A DNA stretch of 51,491 nucleotides from Acutalibacteraceae bacterium. Lineage in GTDB: Bacteria; Bacillota; Clostridia; Oscillospirales; Acutalibacteraceae. The stretch is from NCBI GenBank assembly GCA_045649855.1, contig JAZRQN010000013.1:1-51491 (forward strand), given 5' to 3'. The notes beneath the pieces were generated by a model. That model made no database searches, was not told the DNA's origin, and saw only the letters and a program-made list of their open reading frames with translations. The position numbers and the translations under genes were made by a program. Positions 5,162-51,491 of the stretch are shown piece after piece (positions within the stretch are counted from its first letter, which is position 1; every line of letters begins with the position of its first letter).

Positions 5162-5190
5162 TTGAAAAAGCGTTTTAAGTGTGGTATATT
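5162..5190 (+). promoter_or_regulatory. Putative sigma-A promoter for the capD-like gene
   Basis: TTGAAA, 17-nt spacer, TATATT, with a TGg extended -10. Confidence 0.4.
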
Positions 5191-5228
5191 TATCTGTACA
5201 CGATTATAAACACAACGATTGGGGAAGC

Positions 5229-7088
5229 ATGATGAACAGTAACTTTTCAACCATTATGAAAAGACTCAGCAAAACCGTCATGTTGATGCTTTTGGACGCA
5301 TCGGGCGTGGCGCTGGCGTTTTTTGCCGCTTTGTTGGTGCGGTTTGAATTGGATATCAGAGAGATCCCCGCGGCGTATATACAGGGGTATTTTGGCTTTA
5401 TTGGCTATTGGATCGCCGCTTCGCTGGTGGTTTTTGCGCTGTTCCGTTTGTACGCTACGTTGCTCAGCTATGCCGGGTTTGGTGATCTGGTACGTATAGG
5501 ATTGGCGCATATCGTGCTGATTCCCGGATTCTTGTTCGTGCTGGATATGCCGCGCTCGTTCTTTGTGATGGGGTGGCTGTTCAGTTTCGGTTTTGTTGTG
5601 ATGGTCCGTTTTGGTTGGAGGATGTTGCTCAGTATATCCAATTTCTTTCACAAACAGGCGCGCAACTCTCCCGAACATGATCGCGTGATGATTGTCGGTG
5701 GCGGTGCGGCAGGCCATATGCTGATTCGTGAATATGCGGCAAGCGACCGCTTGAAAGGCAAAATCGTTTGCGTGATCGATGACGATGCCAGCAAAAAGTG
5801 GTGTCGTTTGGAAAGTGTTCCGGTGGTGGGCAATCGTTATGATATTCCTGCTGCGGCACGGCGTTATAAAGTAAATAAAATCATCTTTGCGATTCCGAGC
5901 TGTAACGGTACGGCGCGTAAAGAGATTCTTGATTTATGTTCTCAAACGGGTTGCAAGGTGGAAAAGGTTCCCGGTTTGTATCAACTCGCCAACGGACAAG
6001 CTATTGGCAATCTGCACAAGGTAGAGCCCATCGACCTGTTGGGTCGTGATCCCGTCCAGGTGAATCTGGATGAGATCTACGGATATATTGCAGATAAAGT
6101 TGTGATGGTTACGGGTGGCGGCGGTTCGATCGGCAGCGAATTGTGCCGTCAGATCGCACGCAGTTCCCCGAAACTGCTCATTGTGTTTGATATTTATGAG
6201 AATAACGCGTATGACATCCAAATGGAGCTCAAACGTGATTATCCCACGCTGAATTTGCTGGTGCTCATCGGTTCGGTGCGCAATACCAAACGTTTGGATA
6301 CCGTGCTTGGTAAATATCGTCCGGATATCGTGTTCCATGCGGCGGCACATAAACACGTGCCGTTGATGGAAGACAGCCCTGCAGAAGCGATCAAGAATAA
6401 CGTGTTCGGCACGTATAAATTGGCAAAAGCCGCGGTCAAACACGGCGTGAAAAAGTTCGTGTTGATTTCTACTGATAAAGCGGTTAACCCGACCAATATT
6501 ATGGGCGCGTCCAAGCGTTTGTGCGAAATGGTCGTGCAGATGATGAACCGTGAAGCGACAAACACCGAGTTTGTGGCGGTGCGTTTTGGTAATGTGCTGG
6601 GCAGTAACGGCAGTGTGATTCCGTTGTTTGAAAAACAGATCGCCGAAGGCGGTCCCGTAACGGTAACCCATCCCGACATCATTCGGTATTTTATGACTAT
6701 TCCTGAAGCAGTATCGCTGGTATTGCAGGCAGGATACTATGCCAAAGGCGGCGAGATTTACGTGCTGGATATGGGTCAGCCCGTGAAAATTGCGGATATG
6801 GCGCGTAACCTGATTCGTTTTTCGGGTTATGAACCGGATGTGGATATTCAGATTGTGTACACGGGTCTGCGCCCGGGGGAAAAACTGTATGAAGAACTGC
6901 TGATGGCAGAAGAGGGCATGCAGGAAACCGAAAACAAACTGATCCACATCGGCAAACCGATCGAAATGGACGATGAACTGTTCAAACAGCAGTTGGAAAA
7001 ACTGGAAGCGGCGTATAAAGCCGAGGCAGATAATATCAAAGACGTCGTGGCGGAAATTGTACCTACATACAAACGCACCGATGGATAA
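5229..7088 (+). CDS. Membrane-bound nucleotide-sugar 4,6-dehydratase (CapD/PglF/WbpM family polysaccharide biosynthesis protein)
   Basis: Part of ORF 5181..7088. Four N-terminal TM helices, two Rossmann motifs (IVGGGAAGHML and VTGGGGSIGSELCRQ), and a GASKRLCE Y/K-type catalytic region. Start set at ATG 5229 after GGGGAAG. Confidence 0.85.
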   Translation: MMNSNFSTIMKRLSKTVMLMLLDASGVALAFFAALLVRFELDIREIPAAYIQGYFGFIGYWIAASLVVFALFRLYATLLSYAGFGDLVRIGLAHIVLIPGFLFVLDMPRSFFVMGWLFSFGFVVMVRFGWRMLLSISNFFHKQARNSPEHDRVMIVGGGAAGHMLIREYAASDRLKGKIVCVIDDDASKKWCRLESVPVVGNRYDIPAAARRYKVNKIIFAIPSCNGTARKEILDLCSQTGCKVEKVPGLYQLANGQAIGNLHKVEPIDLLGRDPVQVNLDEIYGYIADKVVMVTGGGGSIGSELCRQIARSSPKLLIVFDIYENNAYDIQMELKRDYPTLNLLVLIGSVRNTKRLDTVLGKYRPDIVFHAAAHKHVPLMEDSPAEAIKNNVFGTYKLAKAAVKHGVKKFVLISTDKAVNPTNIMGASKRLCEMVVQMMNREATNTEFVAVRFGNVLGSNGSVIPLFEKQIAEGGPVTVTHPDIIRYFMTIPEAVSLVLQAGYYAKGGEIYVLDMGQPVKIADMARNLIRFSGYEPDVDIQIVYTGLRPGEKLYEELLMAEEGMQETENKLIHIGKPIEMDDELFKQQLEKLEAAYKAEADNIKDVVAEIVPTYKRTDG

Positions 7089-37172: not shown

Positions 37173-37811
37173 ATGTACAAATCATTTTTGAAACGATTGT
37201 TTGATATTATAATTTCCGTGACGGGAATTATGGTTTTGTTGCCGCTTTTTCTGATTGTTGCCATTGTCGTGAAACTGGAAAGTGAAGGTCCTGTTTTATT
37301 CAAGCAACAGCGCATCGGAAAAGGTGGCAAAGTTTTTGATATTTACAAATTTCGTTCCATGTGTGTTGGTGCGGAAAAGACCGGAAGTGGCGTGTATTCC
37401 GAAAGTGGTGATCCTCGTGTAACGAAGGTCGGGCGCGTTCTTCGTGCGACGAGTTTGGACGAGTTACCGCAGTTGTTTAATATTTTACTCGGACATATGA
37501 GCTTGATCGGCCCTCGTCCGCCTCTTACATATCATCCTTGGCCGTATGAAGAATACACCGATGAACAGAAAAGAATGTTTGAAATGCGCCCCGGTATTAC
37601 CGGTTGGGCACAAATCAACGGCAGAAAAGCGGTGGAATGGAATCACCGCATTGAGTTGAACGTTTGGTATATTGATCATGTGTCTTTTGGGCTGGATGTT
37701 CGCATTTTCTTTATGACGATTTTTAAAGTGTTCAGCAATGCCGACAACGTGAACGCCGGCGCAACCGTTACTGCGCAACAAGAGGAAGCTGTTTCCACGA
37801 CCGAATCTTAA
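37173..37811 (+). CDS. Small monotopic phosphoglycosyltransferase (bacterial sugar transferase, PglC/WbaP-C-terminal type), priming enzyme
   Basis: 212 aa. [20 protein letters not shown] re-entrant helix, [36 protein letters not shown] and [11 protein letters not shown]. Confidence 0.9.
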
Positions 37812-37834: not shown

Positions 37835-38680
37835 ATGCCGTTAAAACTGATGTACATCACAAATAAACCGCATATTGCTTCTATCGTAACCGCAGCCGGT
37901 GTAGATCGGATCTTTATTGATCTTGAGAGTTACGGGAAAGCCGCCAGACAAGGTGGCATGGACACCGTACAATCGAAACATACGGTTGCGGATATTAAAG
38001 CGGTACGCGCGGCGTTAGCAGATGCCGAAATCTTGGTGCGATGCAATCCGGTGCACGATGCAGCAGAAGGATACTGTGCGACCGAAGATGAGATTGATGC
38101 GATTATTGCGGCGGGCGCTGATGTCATAATGCTGCCGTATTTCAAAACCGCTGATGAGGTTTCGCGTTTTCTGCGTGCGGTAAATGGTCGTATTCGGACA
38201 ATGTTATTGTTTGAAACACCTGAATCGGTGGAAAATGTGCAAGAAATTTTAGCTCTCCGCGGTATTGATGAAGTGTTTATAGGACTCAACGATTTAAGCC
38301 TCGGTTATGGTATGAATTTTATGTTCCGGTTAGTTGCTGACGGCACAGTAGAACGACTTTGCAACATTTTCAAAACCAATGGTTTGCCGTACGGTTTTGG
38401 TGGCATTGCTGCTTTGGGTAAAGGTATGCTTCCCGCGGAGCGCGTGATTGCGGAACATTATCGTATGGGTTCTACTTGTGCTATTCTGTCTCGCAGTTTT
38501 TGCAATACGGACATCATTACAGATGTTAATGAAATTGAAACGATTTTCAATGACGGCCTTGGCGCTATTCGCGCTTATGAAGCAGAGTGTGAAAAAAGTG
38601 ATTTTCCGTTTGAAGAGAATCGTGCGGCGCTTGTATGCGCCGTGGATGAGATTTGCAAGGTAATCAAGGAGAAGGCGTGA
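37835..38680 (+). CDS. HpcH/HpaI aldolase / citrate-lyase-beta family protein
   Basis: 281 aa. The ML..ETPESVENVQEILALRGIDEVFIGLNDLSLGYG block resembles the class II pyruvate-aldolase / PEP-utilising TIM-barrel signature. Confidence 0.65.
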   Translation: MPLKLMYITNKPHIASIVTAAGVDRIFIDLESYGKAARQGGMDTVQSKHTVADIKAVRAALADAEILVRCNPVHDAAEGYCATEDEIDAIIAAGADVIMLPYFKTADEVSRFLRAVNGRIRTMLLFETPESVENVQEILALRGIDEVFIGLNDLSLGYGMNFMFRLVADGTVERLCNIFKTNGLPYGFGGIAALGKGMLPAERVIAEHYRMGSTCAILSRSFCNTDIITDVNEIETIFNDGLGAIRAYEAECEKSDFPFEENRAALVCAVDEICKVIKEKA

Positions 38681-39597
38681 TGAAACTCTTATTGACGGGT
38701 GCCGCTACGTATACAGAGTCTCAATTAGCTTCATTGCGTAGCATGGGTCACGAAATTTTGTACGTGCAAGATGAGCGTGTGCCGCTTAAAGAGCAGGGGA
38801 TAGACCCGACAGATATCGAAGCTGCTGTTTGTAACGGTTTGTTTTTGTATAACGATCTGTCGGAATTTGCAAAATTACGTTATGTGCAACTGACCAGTGC
38901 TGGGTTTGATCGCGTGCCTTTGGAATCCATGTTGGAGAAAGGTATCACAGTGCACAATGCCAGAGGCGTTTACAGTGCACCGATGGCGGAGTTTGCGATC
39001 AGTGGTGTTTTGCAGTTGTACAAACAAAGTTTCACTTTCCTGAAAAACCAGTACGCGCATTGTTGGGAAAAAGTGCGGGATTTGAAGGAGTTGTGTGGTA
39101 AAACGGTTGGCATTGTTGGTTGCGGCAGCGTGGGACAGGCGTGTGCAAAACGTTTCAGTGCGTTTGATTGTCGTGTTCTCGGCGTAGACGTAGTGGCGAT
39201 GGATGCGCCGTTTTTCGACAAGGTGTATTTGTTGGAAGAGTTGAACGCAGTGCTTTCTCAGAGCGATGTCGTTGTACTGACATTGCCGCTTACGAACGAG
39301 ACGCGAGACTTGTTTGATCAGAAACGTTTCGATGCTTGCAAGACGGGTACAGTTTTTGTCAATATTGCACGAGGTGCTGTGGTTGTACAACGAGATCTGG
39401 TAACAGCTTTACTGGAAGGTCGTTTGGGCGGTGCAGTTTTGGATGTGTTTGAAACAGAACCTTTGGAGGCGGACAGTCCTCTTTGGGATATGAAAAACGT
39501 GATCTTGACGCCGCACAACAGCTTTGTGAGCGAAGGTAATAATGAGCGGCTGTTTAATGTAATCAAAGAGAATTTAGAGCGCGAAGGTGCAGTATGA
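38680..39597 (+). CDS. D-isomer-specific 2-hydroxyacid dehydrogenase family protein
   Basis: Part of ORF 38653..39597. Start set at ATG 38680, overlapping the upstream TGA. NAD fold GIVGCGSVGQACAKRF, NIARG, and TPHNS catalytic His. Confidence 0.85.
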   Translation: MKLLLTGAATYTESQLASLRSMGHEILYVQDERVPLKEQGIDPTDIEAAVCNGLFLYNDLSEFAKLRYVQLTSAGFDRVPLESMLEKGITVHNARGVYSAPMAEFAISGVLQLYKQSFTFLKNQYAHCWEKVRDLKELCGKTVGIVGCGSVGQACAKRFSAFDCRVLGVDVVAMDAPFFDKVYLLEELNAVLSQSDVVVLTLPLTNETRDLFDQKRFDACKTGTVFVNIARGAVVVQRDLVTALLEGRLGGAVLDVFETEPLEADSPLWDMKNVILTPHNSFVSEGNNERLFNVIKENLEREGAV

Positions 39598-40703
39598 AAA
39601 TTGTTGTAATTTCACCTAAAAACAGAACAGTGTACAATTTTCGCGGCGAATTGATCCGCAGTTTAATCGCACAGGGACACGAGGTGATCGTTACCGGTCC
39701 GGATGGCGAAAACGTTGACAAAATCGAGGAACTTGGTGCGAGATTTGTAGAAATCCCAATGCGCAAAAACGGCTTGAATCCGTTTGCGGATATCCGATAT
39801 TCGAGTGCTTTGTATAAACTGTTCAAAGCGGAAAAGCCGGATGTTACATTCGGCTATACGGTGAAACCGGTTATTTACGGCGCGATTGCTGCTAAAAGGG
39901 CAAAAGTAAAACACAAAGTTTCGATGGTAACGGGACTTGGATATGTGTTTACTGCGGAGACCAAAAAAGCTAAACTGTTGCGTGTGATCGTTTCTACATT
40001 GTATCGCATTGGTTTTAAATGTGCTGATGTCGTCGTTTTCCAAAACGGGGATGACCGCCGTCAGTTGACTGATTTGCGGTTGCTCAAAGATGAGAAATGC
40101 GAAAGCATCAACGGATCGGGTGTAGATATGCGCCACTTCGCGGTCGCAGATTTTCCGGAAACTATCACATTTTTCATGCTCTCCCGTTTGCTGAAAAGCA
40201 AGGGCGTTGCAGAGTATCTGGCTGCTTGTGAAAAGGTGAAGAAATTGTATCCGCAAGTACGGTTTACTTTGCTTGGTAAATACGAGTACGAAATGCAGGA
40301 CGCTGTTGATAAAGAGTATGTTGAGCGATTGATACAAGACAGCGTTATCGAGCGATATGAAGAGACGCACGATGTGCGACCGTATTATGCAGAATGTAGT
40401 GTGTATGTGTTGCCCTCTTATCGTGAAGGAACGCCTCGAACGGTGTTGGAGGCTATGGCGATGGGGCGTCCGATCATTACAACAGATGCACCCGGATGCC
40501 GTGAAACGGTGGTTGATGGCAACAATGGCTTCTTGGTACCGGTAAAAGATGCGGATGCGCTGGCGGAAGCAATGATACGGTTTATTGAAACACCGGAATT
40601 GATTGTTTCGATGGGCAAAAACAGTGTTGAATATTGCAAAGAAAAATTTGATGTCGAAAAAGTAAATCAGAATATGCGTAAATATTTGAGCGTGGAGGAA
40701 TGA
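39594..40703 (+). CDS. GT4-family (GT-B) glycosyltransferase
   Basis: 369 aa. C-terminal PSYREGTPRTVLEAMAMGRPIITTD (E-x7-E). ATGA overlap with the upstream gene. Confidence 0.85.
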   Translation: MKIVVISPKNRTVYNFRGELIRSLIAQGHEVIVTGPDGENVDKIEELGARFVEIPMRKNGLNPFADIRYSSALYKLFKAEKPDVTFGYTVKPVIYGAIAAKRAKVKHKVSMVTGLGYVFTAETKKAKLLRVIVSTLYRIGFKCADVVVFQNGDDRRQLTDLRLLKDEKCESINGSGVDMRHFAVADFPETITFFMLSRLLKSKGVAEYLAACEKVKKLYPQVRFTLLGKYEYEMQDAVDKEYVERLIQDSVIERYEETHDVRPYYAECSVYVLPSYREGTPRTVLEAMAMGRPIITTDAPGCRETVVDGNNGFLVPVKDADALAEAMIRFIETPELIVSMGKNSVEYCKEKFDVEKVNQNMRKYLSVEE

Positions 40704-42028
40704 TGGATATGTCGCTGTATGAGAAAATCGTAAATGGTGAAGAAAAAATCTCGCTGGTTGGCCTCGGTTATGTCGGTATGCCGATTGCTGTAGCTTTTGC
40801 GAAAAAGGTGAAAGTGGTTGGCTTTGATTTGAATGCTAAAAAAATCGAACTGTACAAATCCGGTATCGATCCGACTAACGAGGTTGGCGATGAGGCCATC
40901 AAACAGACCTCTGTGGAGTTCACTGCGGATGAAACCAACCTGCGTGAAGCAAAATTTCACATCGGTGCCGTGCCGACTCCCGTCAATGACGACCATACCC
41001 CTGATTTGACCCCTGTAGAAGGCGCGTCCGCTATTGTTGGCCGCAATCTGACGAAAGGTTCTGTCGTGGTGTTTGAATCCACCGTATACCCCGGTGTAAC
41101 TGAGGATGTTTGTGTGCCGATTCTTGAAAAAGAATCCGGTCTCAAATGCGGTGTGGATTTCAAAGTCGGTTATTCTCCCGAACGCATTAATCCCGGTGAT
41201 AAAGTGCATCGTTTGGAAACAATCGTCAAAATCGTTTCCGGTATGGATGAAGAAACCCTTGATTGTGTCGCTAAAGTGTATGAACTGGTGGTCGAAGCCG
41301 GCGTTCACAGAGCGGAAAGCATTAAAGTTGCTGAAGCTGCAAAGGTAATCGAAAACAGCCAGCGTGATATCAATATCGCGTTTATGAACGAACTGTCCAT
41401 CATCTTCAATAAGATGGGCATTGATACCCAGTCGGTTTTAAAAGCTGCAGGCACGAAATGGAACTTCCTCAAATTCTTCCCCGGCCTCGTGGGCGGTCAT
41501 TGCATCGGCGTCGATCCTTATTATCTGACCTACAAAGCAGAACAGCTTGGCTACCACAGCCAAATTATTCTGTCGGGTCGCCGTATCAATGATGATATGG
41601 GCAAATATGTTGCAGAAAGCGTGGTTAAGAACCTCATCAAAGCGGATGTGGCTATCAAATCTGCCAAAGTCGCTATCCTCGGTTTCACTTTCAAAGAAAA
41701 TTGTCCAGATACCCGCAATACCAAGATTGTGGATATTTACAACGAACTGAAAGAATACGGCATCACCGCAACGGTGGCGGATCCTGCAGCGGATGCAGCG
41801 GAAGCCAAACAGTTGTACGGTATGGAATTCGTGGATATGGCTACCATCAAGGATTGTGATGCCGTAATCTTGGCTGTAGCTCACGAAGAGTTTAAAACTC
41901 TGACCAAAGCGGATTTTGATAAGATGTTTAAAGTAGGGGATAACAGCAAGAAAGTTCTTGCTGATATCAAGGGACTTTTTGACCGCAAAGAATATGAAGC
42001 GGCAGGGTATAACTATTGGAGACTATAA
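40700..42028 (+). CDS. UDP-N-acetylhexosamine 6-dehydrogenase (TviB/WbpO/CapL-like nucleotide-sugar dehydrogenase)
   Basis: 442 aa. ISLVGLGYVGMPIAVAFA NAD fold and catalytic Cys GLVGGHCIGVDPYYL. ATGA overlap with the upstream gene. Substrate inferred from pairing with the TviC/WbpP-like epimerase. Confidence 0.8.
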   Translation: MMDMSLYEKIVNGEEKISLVGLGYVGMPIAVAFAKKVKVVGFDLNAKKIELYKSGIDPTNEVGDEAIKQTSVEFTADETNLREAKFHIGAVPTPVNDDHTPDLTPVEGASAIVGRNLTKGSVVVFESTVYPGVTEDVCVPILEKESGLKCGVDFKVGYSPERINPGDKVHRLETIVKIVSGMDEETLDCVAKVYELVVEAGVHRAESIKVAEAAKVIENSQRDINIAFMNELSIIFNKMGIDTQSVLKAAGTKWNFLKFFPGLVGGHCIGVDPYYLTYKAEQLGYHSQIILSGRRINDDMGKYVAESVVKNLIKADVAIKSAKVAILGFTFKENCPDTRNTKIVDIYNELKEYGITATVADPAADAAEAKQLYGMEFVDMATIKDCDAVILAVAHEEFKTLTKADFDKMFKVGDNSKKVLADIKGLFDRKEYEAAGYNYWRL

Positions 42029-42046: not shown

Positions 42047-43621
42047 ATGTTGAAAGAGCAACTTGACCAAAAAGTTGGATTTAGGAATTTTTTGTATAGA
42101 AGAGGATATCTGATTACAACGAAAAACAGTCTTAGCATAGAAGAATATCCTTTTTATGGAAATTGGACAATGCAGACAATCAACGATAAATTCTTTTTGT
42201 ACGCCCATAAGGAGCAGTATACATATATTCGCTGTACAGGAGGTATAACCGCTGTTTTGATAGGTCATGCCTATAACCCGTTTACAATGGAGATTAGTGA
42301 GAATGAGATTTTGGATGAGTGTATAAAGGCGTACACGAACAGTGAAAGTGCTTTTTTTGACAAAATAAGCGAACTTACTGGGATACATTTAGTTGCAATT
42401 TTCGACAATGAAAAAGCGGTGTTTGTGCAGGATTGTACGGGTATGCAAATGTGTTGCTACGGAAAGTGTAATGAAAACATCTATATAACATCAAACTCTA
42501 CAATAATCGAAGATGTAGATGTCCCTCAAAAGAATCATTTTGCTATCGACTTGTTAAACAGTAAATCCTATAGGCGTGGCAGTAAATATTTGCCGGGTGA
42601 TATTACTATTTATGAGGGCGTTTTTAGATTGGGGCCCAACCTATGTCTCAAATATCAGAATAATGAATTTCAAATTGAAAGATTTTACCCAGTAGAACCA
42701 CACAAGGAACTCAACGAAACACAAAATGATGCTATTAATAGAATCGCACATTTGATAAGAATCAATGTGAGTTTGTGTGCAAAAAAATGGAAGAAACCTG
42801 CAATTTCTTTGTCAGGTGGTACTGATAGCCGAACAACTTTTGCTAGTGCAATTGATAATTATGATAAATTTTATTATTACAGTTTTGAAAGCAAACCGCA
42901 AGAAACAAGAGATGCTGAAGCCGCGCACAACATTTGTACAGGGTTAGGTTTGGAACACACCATTTACAAGATAACTGATAATAATTCTGACTGCGAAGAT
43001 TTTGAACTGTTTAAACAAATTGTCGTGCGCAATTGTTCGAATATCAGCATTCCGCGAGATAATGAAATAAGAAAATATTATTTTCTGAGTAATTTGGATG
43101 ATTTTGAGGTTGAACTTAAATCGTGGGCGTCTGAAATAGGAAGAGCAAGTTGGGAAAAGCGCTATGGATTCAGACTTCCGGATAAACTTACGGCAAGACA
43201 TCTAAGTATTTTTCAAACAAGGTTTTTTGGTGAGCCATCCTTGTTATTACAAAGCGATAAGGCATATAAAGAATTTATGAAAAAATCTTTGTTTGTCCAC
43301 CCGATGTATAACTACGAAGATAGTGATATGTTCTTTTGGGAATATAGAGACGGTGCGAAAGGTTCTATTGTTACAACCGGTCAAAACATCTTTAATTTCC
43401 AGGTTACGATGCCTATGAACAACCGTAAAATCATTGATATGTTTTTGTGGTATCCACATGATTTCAGAAAGTCTAATGGCGTACACAAGGGGGTTATTAG
43501 CGTCAACAACCCCTCCTTGATTAATGTCGGTAACAGTGTGCACAATGGCTATTCTAATGTTAAACGCGTGCTTTTAGAACGAGTTTATTATTATTACAGA
43601 ACATTGTTTTATAAAGGTTAA
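42047..43621 (+). CDS. PP-loop ATP-pyrophosphatase protein, asparagine-synthetase-B-like C-domain; no N-terminal Cys glutaminase nucleophile
   Basis: 524 aa. ISLSGGTDSRT is an SGGxDS PP-loop. AT-rich codon usage unlike the flanking genes. Confidence 0.5.
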   Translation: MLKEQLDQKVGFRNFLYRRGYLITTKNSLSIEEYPFYGNWTMQTINDKFFLYAHKEQYTYIRCTGGITAVLIGHAYNPFTMEISENEILDECIKAYTNSESAFFDKISELTGIHLVAIFDNEKAVFVQDCTGMQMCCYGKCNENIYITSNSTIIEDVDVPQKNHFAIDLLNSKSYRRGSKYLPGDITIYEGVFRLGPNLCLKYQNNEFQIERFYPVEPHKELNETQNDAINRIAHLIRINVSLCAKKWKKPAISLSGGTDSRTTFASAIDNYDKFYYYSFESKPQETRDAEAAHNICTGLGLEHTIYKITDNNSDCEDFELFKQIVVRNCSNISIPRDNEIRKYYFLSNLDDFEVELKSWASEIGRASWEKRYGFRLPDKLTARHLSIFQTRFFGEPSLLLQSDKAYKEFMKKSLFVHPMYNYEDSDMFFWEYRDGAKGSIVTTGQNIFNFQVTMPMNNRKIIDMFLWYPHDFRKSNGVHKGVISVNNPSLINVGNSVHNGYSNVKRVLLERVYYYYRTLFYKG

Positions 43622-43656
43622 ATATTAACGAATGCCATGAATGGGGTGTATAGATT

Positions 43657-44631
43657 GTGGGTTACAAACATTTAAAATTTCCCGAAAACAGTGTGTTTTT
43701 GGTAACGGGTGCCGCCGGCTTTATCGGCTCTAACCTGTGTGAAGCGATTCTCGATATGGGGTATACCGTCCGTGCTTTGGATGACTTGTCCACCGGCAAG
43801 CAAGCAAATGTAGATATGTTTGCCAACAATCCGAATTACACCTTCATAAAGGGTGATATCAAAGATCTTGATACCTGTATGAAGGCGTGCGAGGGTGTTG
43901 ATTACGTTCTCAATCAGGCTGCGTGGGGCAGTGTGCCGCGCTCAATTGAAATGCCGTTGTTCTATTGCAGAAACAATATAGAGGGCACGCTCAATATGCT
44001 GGAGGCCGCTCGCCAAATGGGTGTCAAGAAGTTTGTGTACGCTTCCAGTTCCTCGGTGTACGGCGATGAACCCAATTTGCCCAAAACAGAGGGAAGAGAG
44101 GGCAATTTGCTTTCTCCCTATGCACTGACTAAGCGCTGTGATGAAGAATGGGCGAAACTGTATACCAAGCTGTACGGCTTGGATACCTACGGTATGCGGT
44201 ATTTTAACGTGTTTGGCCGCAGACAGGATCCCGATGGCGCGTATGCGGCAGTGATCCCGAAATTCTTGAAACAGTTGATGAACGGTGAGACCCCCACCAT
44301 CAACGGCGACGGCAAACAAAGCCGCGATTTCACCTATGTGGATAACGTGATCGAAGCGAATTTTAGAGCTTGTCTCGCGCCGAGCGAGGCGGCAGGCGAA
44401 GCGTTTAATATTGCGTACGGCGGTAGAGAATATCTGATCGATATTTACTACGGTCTTACCAAGGCACTGAACGTGGATATTGAACCGCATTTCGGCCCCG
44501 ACCGTAAAGGCGATATTAAGCATTCTAACGCGGACATTTCCAAAGCTCGTCGTTTGCTTGGATATGACCCCGATTATAGTTTTAAAGACGGCATTAAGCT
44601 TGCCATTGAGTGGTATAAGGAGAATTTGTAA
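43657..44631 (+). CDS. NAD-dependent UDP-N-acetylhexosamine(uronate) 4-epimerase (TviC/WbpP/CapI-like SDR)
   Basis: 324 aa with a GTG start. LVTGAAGFIGSNL, SSSSVYG, SPYALTK (YxxxK) and RYFNVFGRRQDP. Confidence 0.85.
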   Translation: MGYKHLKFPENSVFLVTGAAGFIGSNLCEAILDMGYTVRALDDLSTGKQANVDMFANNPNYTFIKGDIKDLDTCMKACEGVDYVLNQAAWGSVPRSIEMPLFYCRNNIEGTLNMLEAARQMGVKKFVYASSSSVYGDEPNLPKTEGREGNLLSPYALTKRCDEEWAKLYTKLYGLDTYGMRYFNVFGRRQDPDGAYAAVIPKFLKQLMNGETPTINGDGKQSRDFTYVDNVIEANFRACLAPSEAAGEAFNIAYGGREYLIDIYYGLTKALNVDIEPHFGPDRKGDIKHSNADISKARRLLGYDPDYSFKDGIKLAIEWYKENL

Positions 44632-45531
44632 GTGATGATAAATCTGAAAAAGATTCTTAATCGAAGCACTCGAGGAAAAATAATGTATTCGCTAAAGTGG
44701 CTCCCGGACAAGCCATATTTGCAACTTTTTTATTGGGCTACAACAGGTAGACGTATTAACTTCAAACACCCAAAGGGATTCAACGAAAAGTTGCAATGGT
44801 TAAAAATCAACGATCGTCATCTTGAGTATTCTAAATTGGTCGATAAATTTGCTGTTCGTGAGCATATTACAGAAGTTTTGGGAGAAGAATACCTTTTTCC
44901 ACTTTTAGGACATTGGCGTTCTTTTGAGGATATTGATTTTAAAGCTCTTCCCAATCAATTTGTTCTTAAATGCAATCACGATTCAGGTAGTACCAGAGTG
45001 ATTAAAAACAAGACATCTCTTACGCAAGCGGATTTTAACGAAATGAGATCGTTTTATACGAAAAAACTTAAAAGAGACTTTTTTAATGCCGGTCGCGAAT
45101 ACCCGTACAAAGGAATTGAACCGTGTATTATTGTTGAGCAATTTATGGTTAATGAAAGCAACCCTGAAAGCAGTATTGAGGATTATAAGTTTTATTGCTT
45201 TGGCGGTGAACCGAAAGCCGTTTTGATTGTTACCGATCGCAATGTGGATTGTCGATTTGATTTCTTTGATATGGAGTTCAACCATTTGGACATCCAAAAA
45301 CAGCATCCTAACGCGGATAAGCCAATCAAGAAACCGAAGTGTTTCGATGAAATGAAGGTCATTGCGCGCAAGTTGGCGGCTGAAAAAAAGATGGTTCGTA
45401 TTGATTTGTATGAGCTTAATGGTACGATTTATTTTGGAGAATACACTTTTTTCCCGGGCGGCGGTTTCGACTTGTTAAAGCCGGAAAAATGGGAAAAGCA
45501 ATTTGGTGAGTGGATAGATTTAAATAAATGA
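44632..45531 (+). CDS. TupA-like ATP-grasp amidoligase family protein
   Basis: 299 aa. FNEKLQWLKIND...LKCNHDSGS...EDYKFYCFGGEPK...RIDLYELNGTIYFGEYTFFPGGG matches my recollection of the ATPgrasp_TupA family. Starts directly after the upstream TAA. Confidence 0.7.
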   Translation: MMINLKKILNRSTRGKIMYSLKWLPDKPYLQLFYWATTGRRINFKHPKGFNEKLQWLKINDRHLEYSKLVDKFAVREHITEVLGEEYLFPLLGHWRSFEDIDFKALPNQFVLKCNHDSGSTRVIKNKTSLTQADFNEMRSFYTKKLKRDFFNAGREYPYKGIEPCIIVEQFMVNESNPESSIEDYKFYCFGGEPKAVLIVTDRNVDCRFDFFDMEFNHLDIQKQHPNADKPIKKPKCFDEMKVIARKLAAEKKMVRIDLYELNGTIYFGEYTFFPGGGFDLLKPEKWEKQFGEWIDLNK

Positions 45532-45544
45532 TGGAGTTGTTGGT

Positions 45545-46501
45545 ATGAGTAGCACATTTTTGCCGAAAGTTTCTATAGTTATACCGGTATATAATGGTTC
45601 AAATTATGTTGGAGAAGCTATTGACAGTGCATTGGCACAAACATATACCAATTTTGAGGTAATTGTTGTAAATGATGGTTCTACCGATAATGGGAAGACC
45701 GAAGAAATAGCTTTGTCCTACGGCGATAAGATCCGCTATTTCAAGAAAGAAAACGGCGGTGTTTCTTCAGCTCTCAACTTTGGCATCTCCATGATGACGG
45801 GTGAGTATTTTTCTTGGTTATCACATGACGATAAGTATGAGCCGTATAAGTTGGAACATCTGGTCGCAGCTTTGTCGAAAATCGAAGACAGAAAAAAAGT
45901 TATTGCTATCAGTGGCGTATATTTTATCGATTTCAATTCTAAAAAAATCAAAGATGGTAACAGCCATTTGATTCAGTCAAAGATATATTCGGGTCGCGAA
46001 ATGTTGGACTTTTCGCTTGAGTACGGTGTTTTGAATGGTTGCGCAATGCTTATACCCAAAACAGCGTTTGACGAATGTGGCGGTTTTGATGAAGAGTTGC
46101 GGTATAACCAAGACGGTTTGAAATGGAATCAGATGTTTTTTGCAGAATATTCTTTGCTGGCCGACACCCAAAACAAGGATGTGATGCACAGGTTGCATGC
46201 TATGCAGGACTCCAAAAGACGCAGGGATCTATTGCTCAGCGATTCTGTTAAAAACAGCAAGATCATCGCTCCGTACTTCATTGCAATTAGCACAAAGAAA
46301 AACAACTATTTTAAACGCTACACTCAGAGATGGGCAAGATTATATTGTAACGAGGCGGTTAAAGAATGTATCCACCTAGGTAGAGAGGCAAAGATATTTT
46401 CTTTTTTGGATGTTTTGGAACTTGAGGGTTGTTTGCTTTTGGGTATGGGTAGGAATATATTAAAAAAGGCATATCATAAACTTGTGTTCCGCATAAAATA
46501 A
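45545..46501 (+). CDS. GT2-family (GT-A) glycosyltransferase
   Basis: VSIVIPVYNGSNYVGEAIDSALAQTY..EVIVVNDGSTD and a downstream SHDDK (DxD-type) motif. Confidence 0.9.
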   Translation: MSSTFLPKVSIVIPVYNGSNYVGEAIDSALAQTYTNFEVIVVNDGSTDNGKTEEIALSYGDKIRYFKKENGGVSSALNFGISMMTGEYFSWLSHDDKYEPYKLEHLVAALSKIEDRKKVIAISGVYFIDFNSKKIKDGNSHLIQSKIYSGREMLDFSLEYGVLNGCAMLIPKTAFDECGGFDEELRYNQDGLKWNQMFFAEYSLLADTQNKDVMHRLHAMQDSKRRRDLLLSDSVKNSKIIAPYFIAISTKKNNYFKRYTQRWARLYCNEAVKECIHLGREAKIFSFLDVLELEGCLLLGMGRNILKKAYHKLVFRIK

Positions 46502-46520
46502 TTCTGTTGCAGGTGGGCAT

Positions 46521-47624
46521 ATGATTTGGTATTTAGGCAATATACTGATTTTGACGCTGATACAGCTCTTTTTCGTGAACGGAGACAGTGTGAAAAATCT
46601 ACGCTCCGATTGGCTTGGGCTAGAGCGCAAAAACTTCGGAAGAAAGCTAATTTGTATTGTGGGCACTCTCAATTGGATTCTTCTATCCGGTTTGAGAGGA
46701 TTAACTGTAGGTGCTGACACCGCCGGTTACAAAGTTAGTTTTTTGAGTACTCAAAACCAAGCCTGGGGATCTGTTTTTGATGATCTTACAGCGAAATTTA
46801 TTCATGGCGAGGACATAAAAGATCCCGGCTATGATGTATTCATGAAAATCTGTCAAATTTTCACGAATGATTTTCAAGTTTATTTAGTTATCGTAGCAAT
46901 ACTTTTCTTCGTGCTGATGGGGATTGCTGTGTATAAATATTCCAATAATCCTTATCAAAGTTTTTTATTGTTTTCTACTCTGTTTTATTCTTTCTTCGCT
47001 ATTACCGGCGTACGTCAGACGATCGCTACTGCTATCGTTGTATTTGGTGGCATTAAATTTATAAAAGAACGAAAACCGCTTCCGTTTTTGCTGTTATTCG
47101 TAGTTGCAGTACCGATCCATATGTCTGCGATTTGTTTCTTACCGTTTTATTTTATCGCTCGCATCAAAATCAACAAAGGCACTTTGTTAACATACTGGGT
47201 TGCGATTGCGTTATCTTTTATTTTTAGGACACAGTTTATGAATTTCTTAGGTGAACTGGTTGGATATGATGATTATAGTATGAACGAAGGTGCGACAGCT
47301 GGAACTTTTATGATCTTGCTGCTTTTGGTTGCGCTTGTTACAACACTGTTCTATAAATTTGTTGCAGATAATGATGATCCGATGGTTACAATGTCAATCA
47401 ACGCTTTGTTTATAGCTTGTATCTTCTCTTCGTTTTTGCTGATTAACCAAAATACAATGCGCGTTGTTCAGTACTATTCGCTGTTTTTGATGTTCCTGTT
47501 GCCGGAATTGAAGAACATCTTCAAAAATCAGTTTTCGGTTTATTGCTACCGCATTGCTTATGTGGGGCTGTTAGTCTTTTTGTTGGTGCGGCAGGCACCG
47601 GTATATAAATTCTTTTGGATGTAA
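46521..47624 (+). CDS. EpsG/Wzy-type polysaccharide polymerase (polytopic membrane protein)
   Basis: 367 aa, about ten or eleven TM helices, with the position and architecture typical of EpsG-family O-antigen/EPS polymerases. Confidence 0.65.
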   Translation: MIWYLGNILILTLIQLFFVNGDSVKNLRSDWLGLERKNFGRKLICIVGTLNWILLSGLRGLTVGADTAGYKVSFLSTQNQAWGSVFDDLTAKFIHGEDIKDPGYDVFMKICQIFTNDFQVYLVIVAILFFVLMGIAVYKYSNNPYQSFLLFSTLFYSFFAITGVRQTIATAIVVFGGIKFIKERKPLPFLLLFVVAVPIHMSAICFLPFYFIARIKINKGTLLTYWVAIALSFIFRTQFMNFLGELVGYDDYSMNEGATAGTFMILLLLVALVTTLFYKFVADNDDPMVTMSINALFIACIFSSFLLINQNTMRVVQYYSLFLMFLLPELKNIFKNQFSVYCYRIAYVGLLVFLLVRQAPVYKFFWM

Positions 47625-47639
47625 AATATAACGGAAAGG

Positions 47640-48836
47640 ATGTGCCGCGTGAAGGTTTTACAGATTAATTGTGTGTATAAAAAAGGCAGCACAGGCAAAA
47701 TAGTGTTAGATCTTCATAACAGTCTGTTGTCAGGTGGTCACGAATCCATTGTATTATACGGTCGAGGCAAGCGTATTCGAGAAGAAAATGTATACAAAGT
47801 CTCCACTGAATTGGAAGGGAGAATACATTCAGTGTTATCGAAAGCGTTTGGTGTGGATTTTGGATTTTCGCCGATTGCGACCGCTAATTCTATTCGAATC
47901 ATAAAAAAAGAAAAACCGGACGTTGTGCACCTGCATTGTTTGAACGGTCATTTCGTGAACGTATATCGTTTGGTGAAATTCTTAAAGAAAAACAAAATTA
48001 AGACCGTTTTAACTTTACACGCAGAAATTATGCACACCGCAGGTTGCGAGCACGCAATGGATTGTGAGAAATGGATGAGCGAATGCTGCGATTGCTGGAA
48101 AATCAAAGGTTTTATATCAAAATATTTTCGTGATGATGCAAGACACTGCTATCGCTTGATGAAAAAAGCGTTTGCCGGTTTCGAAAATTTGACGGTTGTT
48201 GGCGTTTCGCATTGGATCACCGAGCGAGCGAAACAATCTCCGATTTTCAAAGATGCCAAATTTGCAACTGTACATAATGGAATCAATACCGATGTGTTTC
48301 AGCCCAGAGAATATACGGAACTGAAAAGGAAATTAGGTATCGATGATGAACGGAAAATCATTCTGCATGTAACACCCAATTTCAATCACGCTATCAAAGG
48401 TGGCAAATATGTGCTTGAGTTAGCCAAAATGATGCCTGAATATCAATTCATTATAGTTGGTTTTAACGGTGATAAAAATTTGCTTCCACCTAACATTATG
48501 CCGATTGCGCATACGCAAGATCAAATCGAATTGGCGCAGTACTACTCTATGGCGGATTGCTGTGTGATAACCAGCTTGCGGGAAACTTTCTCTATGGTTT
48601 GTGTCGAGGCGAACGCTTGCGGTAGTCCAATGGTTGCTTTTCATGTTGGTGGTATCCCTGAAGCTATATCAAAAGATATGGGAGAGACAGTACAGCCTTT
48701 TGATATTGAGTTGTTGAAAAAAGCAGCGAAAAAATGGTCTGATACGCAAATTACGGATAGCACAACGCAAACTGTCATCGATAAGAATAGTAAAAACGTA
48801 ATGTTTTGCAAACATCTTTGTGTTTATCAAGCTTAA
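47640..48836 (+). CDS. GT4-family glycosyltransferase
   Basis: 398 aa. VLQINCVYKKGSTGKIV N-terminus and SLRETFSMVCVEANACGSPMVAFHVGGIPE (E-x7-E-like). Confidence 0.8.
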   Translation: MCRVKVLQINCVYKKGSTGKIVLDLHNSLLSGGHESIVLYGRGKRIREENVYKVSTELEGRIHSVLSKAFGVDFGFSPIATANSIRIIKKEKPDVVHLHCLNGHFVNVYRLVKFLKKNKIKTVLTLHAEIMHTAGCEHAMDCEKWMSECCDCWKIKGFISKYFRDDARHCYRLMKKAFAGFENLTVVGVSHWITERAKQSPIFKDAKFATVHNGINTDVFQPREYTELKRKLGIDDERKIILHVTPNFNHAIKGGKYVLELAKMMPEYQFIIVGFNGDKNLLPPNIMPIAHTQDQIELAQYYSMADCCVITSLRETFSMVCVEANACGSPMVAFHVGGIPEAISKDMGETVQPFDIELLKKAAKKWSDTQITDSTTQTVIDKNSKNVMFCKHLCVYQA

Positions 48837-48863
48837 TACAAAATAAAAAAGGGGGGAGATGCG

Positions 48864-50039
48864 ATGTCGTCAAAAAAAGATTCTCGAGTTGTCCATTATT
48901 TATCTTTTTATCATGACGAAAACGAAGTTAATGGTCGAAAGAAAGAGATTGCTGCTCAGCAGAAAGTGCGCTATATCGGTAGTTGCATTTTGAAAAGTGG
49001 TGCAAAACTGAAAATTGTTTCAACAGCTGTTTTGGATGCTTCAGCTAGATTGTTTATGCCTCAAAAAAATGTCACTGTATCAGATGAGGAACAACATATT
49101 TATATCTCCGCCGTGCATCCGAAAACAAAACTTTCTGGTTTGTATATGAAGCTGGCCGTTACTTCGTACTTGCTTTTTCACGTCAAAAGAAACGACTGCG
49201 TTATCGCTTATCACAGTCCCTCGTATATTTGGCCTTTACGTATATTTAAATTCTTCAAGAAAAATCGTTTAGTGCTTGAATTTAACGATTTGTATCATCT
49301 GTTGTACACCGATACAAAAAAATCGCACACTATTCAAAATAAAGAACAAAGACTACTCAATCTTCCTGATGGTTTTATCTTGGCCTCTCCGTTCATGCGT
49401 GAATTGATCGGCGATAAAAAGAGTATAGTAAATTATGGTAGTTACTCTGTTTTTGAGGAGGACGGAAACACGAGGGAAATGTGTCAGGAACATCTGATTA
49501 TCTATACGGGGATTATAGAAACATTACGAAAAGGTGCTTTTACCGTGGCGGAAAGTGCCGCATATCTGCCAAAAGGATATACTATTCAGATTGCTGGTTT
49601 CGGCGCTGAAGTGGATATTATTAAATTAAAAAATTTATGCGATACGGTCAATCGAAACATTGGACGAAAAGCGGTTGAATATATTGGCTGTTTAAACCAT
49701 AGCGAACTTTCTAAGTTAATGCAAAAAGCATGTCTTGCCATAAATGCACATACCTACGCAGAAAACGAAATTTGGAAATCAAAGTATTCCTTTCCCTCTA
49801 AAATTCCGCTTAATATGGCGAACGGATTGTTTGTGGTAACCTATCCCTATGAAATTATAACAACTTCTCCCATGAAAGATGCTTGTATTTTTTTTGAGGA
49901 GCTCACAGGAAAGAGTATGGCCAACGCAATCGTCAGGGGAGTGGAAATGACACGGAACTCTTCTGTAAATCCAAAAACGATTATCCGAAAAATGGATGAA
50001 GAGTTTTTGGTTCAAATAGCCAATCTAATCGATAGTTGA
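48864..50039 (+). CDS. Hypothetical protein, possibly a divergent GT-B glycosyltransferase
   Basis: 391 aa, SD GGGGGGAG upstream. Only a weak C-terminal resemblance (SFPSKIPLNMANGLFVV) to GT-B donor-binding loops. Confidence 0.4.
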   Translation: MSSKKDSRVVHYLSFYHDENEVNGRKKEIAAQQKVRYIGSCILKSGAKLKIVSTAVLDASARLFMPQKNVTVSDEEQHIYISAVHPKTKLSGLYMKLAVTSYLLFHVKRNDCVIAYHSPSYIWPLRIFKFFKKNRLVLEFNDLYHLLYTDTKKSHTIQNKEQRLLNLPDGFILASPFMRELIGDKKSIVNYGSYSVFEEDGNTREMCQEHLIIYTGIIETLRKGAFTVAESAAYLPKGYTIQIAGFGAEVDIIKLKNLCDTVNRNIGRKAVEYIGCLNHSELSKLMQKACLAINAHTYAENEIWKSKYSFPSKIPLNMANGLFVVTYPYEIITTSPMKDACIFFEELTGKSMANAIVRGVEMTRNSSVNPKTIIRKMDEEFLVQIANLIDS

Positions 50040-50064
50040 TGGTTTACAAGTAAAGGATACAGTA

Positions 50065-51491
50065 ATGAACAATAATAAAAAAGTTACTCGCAATCTAACA
50101 AGTTCCATAATTGGGCAGATAATAGCCATTACCGTTGGTCTTCTTATTCCGCGGCTTTTTATTGTGGGATACGGTTCTGCGGTGAATGGTCTCATTAGCT
50201 CTATAAACCAAATATTGGTGTATTTAGGATTGTTTGAAGCCGGCGTAGGTGCCACAACCCTTGTAGCATTATATAAGCCGATTGCAACACAGGAAAAAGA
50301 CAGTATCAACTCTATACTGTCTGCAACTAATCAATATTATAAAAGAACAGGTACACTCTATTTTGTGTTTTTGGTTTTATTGAGCGTACTTTTTCCGTTC
50401 TTAGCAAAAGAAAACCTCAATTATAGTTCGGTTTTTTTAATTGTATTTTTTAGTGGAATATGTAATGTGATCAGTTTTTATTTCCAAGGAAAATACAGAC
50501 TGCTTTTGCAAGCAGAAGGTAAAAATTACATAATAACCAACTTAACCAGTGTCACAACCTTGCTAGTTGGTGTTATGAAAATCATCTTGCTTTCGCTCAA
50601 GATTAACGTGGTTCTGATTATTGCATCAACCACAATAATACATTTAATACCTTTTGCTTATATAATGTTTTATATCAGAAAAAGATATTCTTGGATCAAT
50701 CTAAAAGTTCAACCCGACACAAAAGCGTTGGACCAGCGAAATTTTGTTTTACTTCATCAGGTTTCAGATTTAATTTTTTACAATACAGACATATTAATAC
50801 TGACACTTTTCTGCGATTTCAAAGTGGTCAGCGTATATTCGCTCTATAAACTTATATTCGGTCATCTGGAAAGTATCATTTCCGTTGTTTCTCGTTCTTT
50901 TACTTTTTTACTTGGGCAAACCTACCAGACTAATATAGAAAAGTATAAAAAAAATATCGATGTATACGAATCTCTTTATACAGGTTTGTCATCTGCCGTT
51001 CTAACCGTTGCACTATATTTGACACTTCCTTTTTTGAAGTTATATACAGTTGGTGTAGTGGATATCAATTATGTGGATTATTTGTTAGCAGTTCTATTTA
51101 CCGCTGCATCATTTTTTACCGCTGTTCGCAATCCAATGATGATAACGATCAATTTTGCTGGTCATTTTAAAAAAACAACATGGCAGACGTTGCTGGAAGC
51201 GATTATTAATTTGTTAGTTTCCTTGGTCGGTGTGTATTTCTTGGGAATATATGGTGTGCTACTTGGAACAGTTGTTGCATTGATCTATCGCACGAATTTT
51301 GTTGTTTTGTATTCTAACATAAAGTTAATGCACAGATCGCCTTTAAAAACATATTTTATTCATTTTGTAAATTTAATTTTGCTGGTTGCTTTGCAATTTC
51401 TTTTCTCGTTCATATTTACGGAAATTAACACTTATCTAAAATTTTTATTGTATCGTACGGTGATGATTTTCATATCTTTAGTAGTATTCTT
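50065..51491 (+). CDS. Wzx-type oligosaccharide flippase (MOP/polysaccharide biosynthesis protein family), 3'-truncated by the window edge
   Basis: Absent from the supplied ORF track. My translation from ATG 50065 (MNNNKKVTRNLTSSIIGQIIAITVGLLIPRLF...) stays open to position 51491. Many TM helices; very AT-rich. Confidence 0.75.
   Translation, partial: MNNNKKVTRNLTSSIIGQIIAITVGLLIPRLFIVGYGSAVNGLISSINQILVYLGLFEAGVGATTLVALYKPIATQEKDSINSILSATNQYYKRTGTLYFVFLVLLSVLFPFLAKENLNYSSVFLIVFFSGICNVISFYFQGKYRLLLQAEGKNYIITNLTSVTTLLVGVMKIILLSLKINVVLIIASTTIIHLIPFAYIMFYIRKRYSWINLKVQPDTKALDQRNFVLLHQVSDLIFYNTDILILTLFCDFKVVSVYSLYKLIFGHLESIISVVSRSFTFLLGQTYQTNIEKYKKNIDVYESLYTGLSSAVLTVALYLTLPFLKLYTVGVVDINYVDYLLAVLFTAASFFTAVRNPMMITINFAGHFKKTTWQTLLEAIINLLVSLVGVYFLGIYGVLLGTVVALIYRTNFVVLYSNIKLMHRSPLKTYFIHFVNLILLVALQFLFSFIFTEINTYLKFLLYRTVMIFISLVVF

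Follow-up and report, generated by a model that had tools for sequence, protein, structure and literature searches.

The stretch of DNA analysed here, referred to as the window, comprises 51,491 nucleotides of an Acutalibacteraceae bacterium (assembly GCA_045649855.1, contig JAZRQN010000013.1) and carries a surface-polysaccharide locus in which two candidate carboxylate-activating ligases, an AsnB-like protein (P0001) and a TupA-like ATP-grasp protein, stand next to genes for uronic acid formation. Both are part of a larger, tightly packed operon on the + strand that runs from 37173 past the end of the window. The operon opens with a short priming transferase (polyprenyl-phosphate sugar-phosphate transferase, 212 aa, 37173..37811; PF02397, E 3e-68), followed by an HpcH/HpaI-like TIM-barrel protein resembling class II pyruvate aldolases (37835..38680; PF03328, 56.7 bits) and a D-isomer-specific 2-hydroxyacid dehydrogenase (2HADH; 38653..39597; PF02826, E 2e-53). 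The latter shows weak, sub-threshold similarity to the VanH, GhrB and PGDH models and has to be regarded as generic. These three genes are termed the starter or acid module in the following. A family 4 glycosyltransferase (GT4; 39594..40703; PF00534, E 2e-32; weak similarity to TuaC and TviE) is probably the transferase for N-acetylgalactosaminuronic acid (GalNAcA).

The four genes of interest come next: a TviB-like UDP-N-acetylglucosamine 6-dehydrogenase (442 aa, 40700..42028), P0001 (524 aa, 42047..43621), a TviC-like 4-epimerase for UDP-N-acetylglucosaminuronic acid (324 aa, 43657..44631; PF01370, E 8e-62) and the TupA-like ligase (299 aa, 44632..45531). An earlier, sequence-only reading of this DNA had placed the four open reading frames in the same order and positions, and all of them were recovered on the + strand. 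The TviB-like protein contains all three UDPG_MGDP_dh domains and passes TIGR03026 (381.7 bits, cut-off 189.8). Its best equivalog is TviB (NF011729) with 475 bits at a cut-off of 592, and that of the epimerase is TviC (NF011728) with 299.6 bits at a cut-off of 760. Since both best NCBIfam matches lie under their equivalog cut-offs, the names are kept at the level of TviB-like and TviC-like.

Downstream follows an AT-rich variable part (45545..51489, +; guanine-plus-cytosine (GC) content 0.33-0.40) in which Pfam matches point to a family 2 glycosyltransferase (GT2), an EpsG-type polymerase and two GT4-like proteins, and which ends in a multi-pass membrane protein. This last frame (50065-51489, +, 475 aa, GC 0.33) runs off the window, contains about 13 hydrophobic segments and gave no match in the Pfam scan; it probably encodes a polytopic membrane protein belonging to the locus, such as a flippase. 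The composition of the operon is mosaic. P0001 and the TupA-like gene have GC contents of 0.355 and 0.373, whereas the TviB-like and TviC-like genes, with 0.457 and 0.482, are close to the mean of 0.474 over the housekeeping part of the window (1-37 kb). The initial observation of two AT-rich amide-forming genes beside a dehydrogenase and an epimerase of core-like composition thus holds.

P0001 possesses the PP-loop S254-L-S-G-G-T-D-S261, and its N-terminus, MLKEQLDQK, is devoid of Cys2, the nucleophile of the glutaminase domain. Sequence models recognise little beyond the PP-loop: the Asn_synthase profile PF00733 covers residues 240-311 only, with 17.9 bits at a cut-off of 21, TIGR01536 gives 34.8 bits at a cut-off of 267, and a QueC model reaches 25 bits on the PP-loop. 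The WbpS-type model TIGR03108 (eps_aminotran_1) was not among the NCBIfam matches of P0001. A search of the PDB with the sequence gave no match; the family profile found QueC PP-loops and, as the sole AsnB-type chain, CarA with a marginal E value of 0.25. In the ESM Atlas solely clusters named 'asparagine synthase-related/hypothetical' were returned.

The AlphaFold (AF2) model, built from 26 homologs, has a mean predicted local distance difference test (pLDDT) of 90.7 and a predicted template modelling score (pTM) of 0.92, and according to VIA-align it forms a complete two-domain AsnB fold. Z scores were 22.4 for CarA (407 residues aligned, root-mean-square deviation 3.9), 21.2 for beta-lactam synthetase, 21.1 for TsnB9, 20.3 for Escherichia coli AsnB (1ct9, 375 residues) and 17.6 for human ASNS. 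Residues 19-215 match the N-terminal nucleophile (Ntn) glutaminase domains of PurF, GlmS and EgtC with Z 7-8. In the structural alignments residue 19 of the model lies opposite residue 1 of AsnB, PurF and GlmS, so that the position of Cys1 is taken by Arg19/Gly20, conserved in the family and preceded by an 18-residue N-terminal extension. For this reason the N-terminal ~230 residues are assigned, on the strength of the model, to a glutaminase-like Ntn-type domain without nucleophile, as in beta-lactam synthetase and CarA. Structure prediction therefore defines the part of the protein that the first reading had left undefined, and bears out the loss of the nucleophile proposed there. The AsnB-like identity fares less uniformly: the predicted two-domain fold argues for it, the PF00733 score stays under the cut-off, and the proposed kinship to AsnB is accordingly one of predicted fold and not of sequence models.

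The N-terminal domain has not degenerated: the motifs GHAYNP and QDC, among others, are kept across 78 family sequences (31-74% identity to P0001), in which 30 positions are invariant and 27 near-invariant; S254, G257, G258, D260 and S261 of the PP-loop belong to the invariant ones. This conservation suggests that the domain may bind a ligand, and the two top structural matches are cysteine-less cyclising enzymes (Z 21-22). Both points would suit an enzyme that forms a lactam or ligates an amine other than ammonia, and a family member directly behind a Mur ligase (see below) would suit one that acts on a cell-wall precursor instead of this polysaccharide. However, CarA, beta-lactam synthetase, TsnB9 and AsnB differ by no more than about 2 units in their Z scores, and the fold therefore does not discriminate the chemistry, and minimal cassettes such as that of locus L025 encode no amine-bearing substrate. 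We consider such activities improbable.

The P0001 family comprises 852 homologs of ~530 aa in a 90%-identity collection and forms 396 clusters at 50% identity (E<=1e-30), with members in Bacillota, Bacteroidota, Lentisphaerota and Thermodesulfobacteriota. Eighty loci with P0001 relatives were fetched, one per species and mostly from metagenome-assembled genomes of gut Clostridia; Enterococcus, Jeotgalibacillus, Mariniphaga, Desulfobacteraceae and Lentisphaerota are also represented. The family is sparse, as a phylum sample of 400 genomes contained no further carrier of the AsnB-like gene. One distant relative, P0231 (1027 aa), is fused to a C-terminal GT28 (MurG-like) domain; in a Pfam scan of the longer fused relatives (660-1027 aa) the extensions of the other fusions, which measure 660-950 aa in total, gave no match.

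The most constant neighbour of the AsnB-like gene is the 2HADH, which occurs in 63 of the 80 loci and usually lies directly upstream. It is followed in frequency by the priming transferase (55, with orthologs of 54-76% identity), the HpcH-like gene and GT4 (51 each), TviC (37), TviB (34) and TupA (19). Orthologs of the GT4 at 39594..40703 mostly accompany TviB/TviC. The commonest layout is a contiguous block of transferase, HpcH-like, 2HADH, AsnB-like and GT4 genes. For co-occurrence counts we used the 46 loci in which the AsnB-like gene has 8 kb or more of sequence to either side (full-flank loci). Here 19 loci contain the acid module only, 22 both modules, two the uronate genes only and three neither. 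The acid module is thus found near the AsnB-like gene in 41/46 loci, TviB/TviC in 24/46. The five genomes without a nearby acid module all contain an HpcH ortholog (51-56% identity) elsewhere. In the complete genome of Ruminococcus sp. JE7B6 (L025) the cassette is reduced to a minimal four-gene block followed only by glycosyltransferases and a polymerase, and the sole nucleotide-sugar dehydrogenase is located 1.3 Mb away.

The same association appears at the level of whole genomes. Among 398 other genomes, sampled evenly across the class, the AsnB-like gene is rare: five strong carriers were found, each from a different family. HpcH orthologs are present in 21 of the 398 genomes (a baseline of ~5%), and all five carriers are among them, which corresponds to a hypergeometric probability of ~2.5e-7 for genomes that are not fully independent. 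In two of these carriers the AsnB-like and HpcH genes lie on different contigs or 26 kb apart. A nucleotide-sugar 6-dehydrogenase (PF03721) occurs in three of the five; G441 (97% complete) and G531 (98% complete) have none, and it is likewise absent from two (L019, L042) of five further genomes. The AsnB-like family as a whole can therefore not depend on uronic acid. The assumption that both ligases serve the uronate of the single dehydrogenase does not agree with these distributions; for P0001, a link to the hydroxy-acid starter module is the more probable one.

The distribution of the second ligase is different. The call as a TupA-like ATP-grasp protein is substantiated by a nearly full-length match to PF14305 (192.8 bits, cut-off 25, E 8.8e-57), in which residues 52-295 cover profile positions 1-240 of 241. 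Translation possibly starts at ATG 44635, not at GTG 44632, with an AAGGAG ribosome-binding site 7-10 nt upstream. Fourteen loci (12 from the locus set as well as L120 and L121) contain an ortholog of at least 64% identity, and in all 14 it is the gene immediately downstream of TviC. If TupA-like genes of any identity are counted in the full-flank loci, they occur in 12 of the 24 with uronate genes and in none of the 22 without (hypergeometric ~7e-5). The genome of the window encodes a second, distant TupA-like ATP-grasp protein on another contig (G000:C137:16317-17045, -; 32% identity, E 1.5e-22, within a 452-aa frame).

A quick IQ-TREE phylogeny with Shimodaira-Hasegawa-like approximate likelihood ratio test (SH-aLRT) support was calculated. 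In it the AsnB-like gene is enclosed by TviB and TviC in three clades, namely the small clade of the window, a large clade (L045-L066) and L077, which forms a deep branch. TviB orthologs from other genera are 82-93% identical and TviC orthologs 83-97%. Between flanks of 82-93% identity the enclosed AsnB-like gene is only 33-41% identical; for L054, L057, L060 and L063-L066 compared with the window, the TviB-like and TviC-like genes are 90-97% identical across gut Clostridia genera and the enclosed gene ~40%. The conserved TviB-like and TviC-like genes look like recombination anchors, and because a divergent gene sits inside near-identical flanks and coincides with a dip in GC, the pattern indicates cassette replacement of the AsnB-like gene. 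The earlier impression of a module assembled from parts gains in strength by this result. In L010 (11800-12900), a member of the window's clade, a ligase of the ATPgrasp_ST type is inserted between the AsnB-like gene and TviC, so that the two types of ligase are paired here as well.

L012, the sister of the window's clade, has no TviB/TviC nearby. The clade rich in TviB/TviC-embedded genes and the clade rich in loci with the acid module only are separated by no more than 14 fixed differences, and at most of them the window's clade agrees with the latter. This is weak evidence that the active site of the window's copy was not retooled.

Individual genes of the starter module give hints at what it might produce. 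In an alignment of the HpcH-like protein with HpaI, the E of FETPES and the D of GLNDLS, at the positions of the HpaI metal ligands, are conserved. A variant of the cassette without the HpcH gene, e.g. L080:7211-11533, combines priming transferase, 2HADH, a D-Ala-D-Ala-ligase (Ddl)-like ATP-grasp protein and the AsnB-like protein. The Ddl-like proteins of these variant loci are 72-100% identical to each other, and a CapD-type dehydratase gene and glmS are found upstream in divergent orientation. Side by side, the 2HADH and the Ddl-like ligase resemble the VanH/VanA pair, which would point to a D-2-hydroxy acid in free form. A 608-aa gene next to CapD was considered as an aldolase fusion and rejected, as it encodes GlmS. 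HpcH_HpaI Pfam matches in long open reading frames of carriers without HpcH were not used, since such matches also occur in 9/14 control genomes.

The pairing of a Ddl-like ligase with 2HADH, which follows the VanA/VanH logic, would also suit a sequential scheme: an ATP-grasp ligase would add an amino or hydroxy acid to a carboxylate, and the AsnB-like enzyme would then amidate the new terminal carboxylate. Three kinds of ATP-grasp proteins (TupA-like, ATPgrasp_ST and Ddl-like) indeed adjoin the AsnB-like gene in many loci. As any of these kinds is present in only 20/46 full-flank loci, an ATP-grasp step is no general prerequisite, and we regard sequential modification, one of the options raised by the sequence-only reading, as quite unlikely.

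An orphan membrane-type UDP-N-acetylglucosamine 4,6-dehydratase of the PglF/CapD/EpsC type (635 aa, 5181-7088, +; CoA_binding_3 and Polysacc_synt_2, E 1e-123) is encoded 30 kb away from the polysaccharide locus, where a ClC channel gene and uvrB/uvrA flank it and neither an aminotransferase nor a reductase partner adjoins. The starter module could receive a 4-keto sugar from this enzyme. Its presence, and the close association of the priming transferase with the module, would fit a pyruvate-derived branch on a 4-keto sugar, in analogy to the amide-capped sugar shewanellose that is discussed below.

Taken together, the locus most likely contains two chemically different carboxylate-activating ligases, each with a carboxylate of its own to act on within one polysaccharide, a reading to which we give about even chances. 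From the gene content, the predicted fold, the lost nucleophile and the co-occurrence patterns we infer the following course. TviB and TviC would make UDP-GalNAcA, whose C6 carboxylate the TupA-like enzyme would turn into an amide via an acyl-phosphate. The amine, for whose synthesis the locus has no gene, would be drawn from general metabolism. P0001 would adenylate a carboxylate at its PP-loop site and form an amide without hydrolysis of glutamine, the nitrogen donor being most likely free ammonium. Its substrate is probably not the uronate; an acid from the starter module, either free or already linked to a sugar, would be used. Of the original interpretation, the two amide-forming mechanisms in one mosaic locus are retained, while the assignment of the AsnB-like enzyme to uronate is more probably incorrect.

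Several points weigh against this distribution of roles. The AsnB-like gene sits between TviB and TviC in the window and in about 20 other loci, in three independent clades, and half of the loci contain TviB/TviC. AsnB-type synthetase domains are able to use NH3 directly. There is also a precedent for AsnB-type uronamide synthesis in WbpS/WbqG of Pseudomonas aeruginosa O6, E. coli O121 and Porphyromonas gingivalis (PMC7468200). P0001 might thus act in the manner of WbpS/WbqG and convert UDP-GalNAcA, or GalNAcA within the polymer, into its amide GalNAcAN, with an adenylate as intermediate but free ammonia as nitrogen source, and TupA would modify a second uronate or compete for the same one. 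Against such a function stand the 19 full-flank loci with the acid module only, which have no TviB/TviC within 10 kb, the genomes mentioned above (two of them 97-98% complete) without a PF03721 dehydrogenase, the missing TIGR03108 match and low TIGR01536 score, and the small number of fixed differences between the two gene contexts. For this locus, amidation of uronate by P0001 appears unlikely to us, though likelier than the other alternatives.

Further counterpoints concern the starter module itself. Three of the 46 full-flank loci have neither module nearby. In an Acutalibacteraceae locus (L088:8508-11587, the same gene as in L055) the gene immediately in front of the AsnB-like gene encodes a three-domain Mur ligase, and polysaccharide genes are absent from the surroundings, which hints at a peptidoglycan-precursor substrate in this deep-branching clade. 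More than one substrate is therefore possible within the family. In seven loci (L015, L020, L027, L040, L053, L074, L080) a separate HpcH gene is lacking and a Ddl-like gene takes its place, so the aldolase is not obligatory. As to the TupA-like ligase, of 20 distant TupA-like genes of the class (38-49% identity for 18 of the 20), 18 are without a TviB-like gene in the surrounding 9 kb; uronate ligation is hence not a family-wide rule for TupA. Finally, the compared genomes are related to each other and many are incomplete metagenome-assembled genomes, and literature searches for the gene combination and for cysteine-less AsnB-like enzymes in polysaccharide loci gave nothing relevant to the family.

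If the assignment of P0001 to the starter module is carried further, P0001 might found a new class of glycan-tailoring amide synthetases with a glutaminase-dead AsnB fold. The starter module would place a hydroxy acid or a pyruvate-derived side chain on the first sugar, and these enzymes would cap its carboxyl group with free ammonia, giving a shewanellose-like residue, and the polymer would carry two amides formed by an adenylate and an acyl-phosphate route. We put this forward tentatively, as a possibility with less than even prospects. Surface polysaccharides of gut Clostridia are chemically almost uncharted, the P0001 family is without a characterised member, and its routine annotation as asparagine synthase is almost certainly wrong. 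With the reassigned substrate, uronate would cease to be the first candidate for P0001. Among the carriers, Ruminococcus sp. JE7B6 is in culture and has a complete genome sequence, and a new sugar decoration could come to light from its minimal cassette. Moreover, divergent alleles between near-identical TviB/TviC flanks illustrate how antigenic diversity arises by cassette swapping.

Comparison with known systems shows several partial likenesses. Beta-lactam synthetase (1m1z/1jgt) and CarA (1q15) share with P0001 the two-domain AsnB fold, the loss of the N-terminal Cys and the adenylating C-domain with its PP-loop. They differ by an identity of only ~12% and by their role in antibiotic pathways, where small amino-acid-derived substrates are cyclised, whereas the P0001 family occurs in operons for surface polysaccharides, with 18 additional residues at the N-terminus and a set of invariant residues of its own. 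Beta-lactam synthetase is further characterised by a catalytic Tyr/Glu/Lys set and by intramolecular lactam formation. WbpS, WbqG and PGN_1234 are AsnB-type enzymes encoded beside TviB/TviC-type (WbpO/WbpP) genes and convert a sugar carboxylate into the carboxamide (PMC7468200). In the window, P0001 likewise is an AsnB-type protein in a glycan locus beside TviB/TviC-type genes. In enzymes of the WbpS type the catalytic Cys is retained, and glutamine serves as nitrogen donor. P0001, unlike them, has neither the Cys nor a TIGR03108 match, and its family often occurs without any uronate-forming gene.

For the second ligase, the C-terminal TupA-like domain of Cj1438 from Campylobacter jejuni forms amides on the C6 carboxylate of glucuronic acid (GlcA) in the capsule (PMC11800379). 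The PF14305 fold is common to this domain, the C. jejuni capsule amidoligase HS19.11, TupA of the Bacillus halodurans teichuronopeptide and the TupA-like protein of the window, which directly follows the uronate-making genes. The latter is, however, a stand-alone protein not fused to a GT2 domain, its uronate would be GalNAcA and not GlcA, and in contrast to the Campylobacter amidoligase systems the locus contains no genes for the supply of serinol- or ethanolamine-phosphate.

A chemical counterpart of the starter module may be seen in shewanellose, 2-acetamido-2,6-dideoxy-4-C-(3'-carboxamide-2',2'-dihydroxypropyl)-D-galactose, from Shewanella putrefaciens A6, a sugar with a terminal carboxamide on its side chain (PMC4052302). 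Its structure is that of a pyruvate aldol adduct on a 4-keto-6-deoxy-N-acetylhexosamine with the carboxyl group capped as primary amide. Differing from such a scheme, the cassette adds a 2HADH, and many cassettes are without a dehydratase nearby. We know of no biosynthetic genes for shewanellose. By analogy, its chemistry could be achieved by a PglF-like dehydratase together with an HpcH-like aldolase and an amide synthetase.

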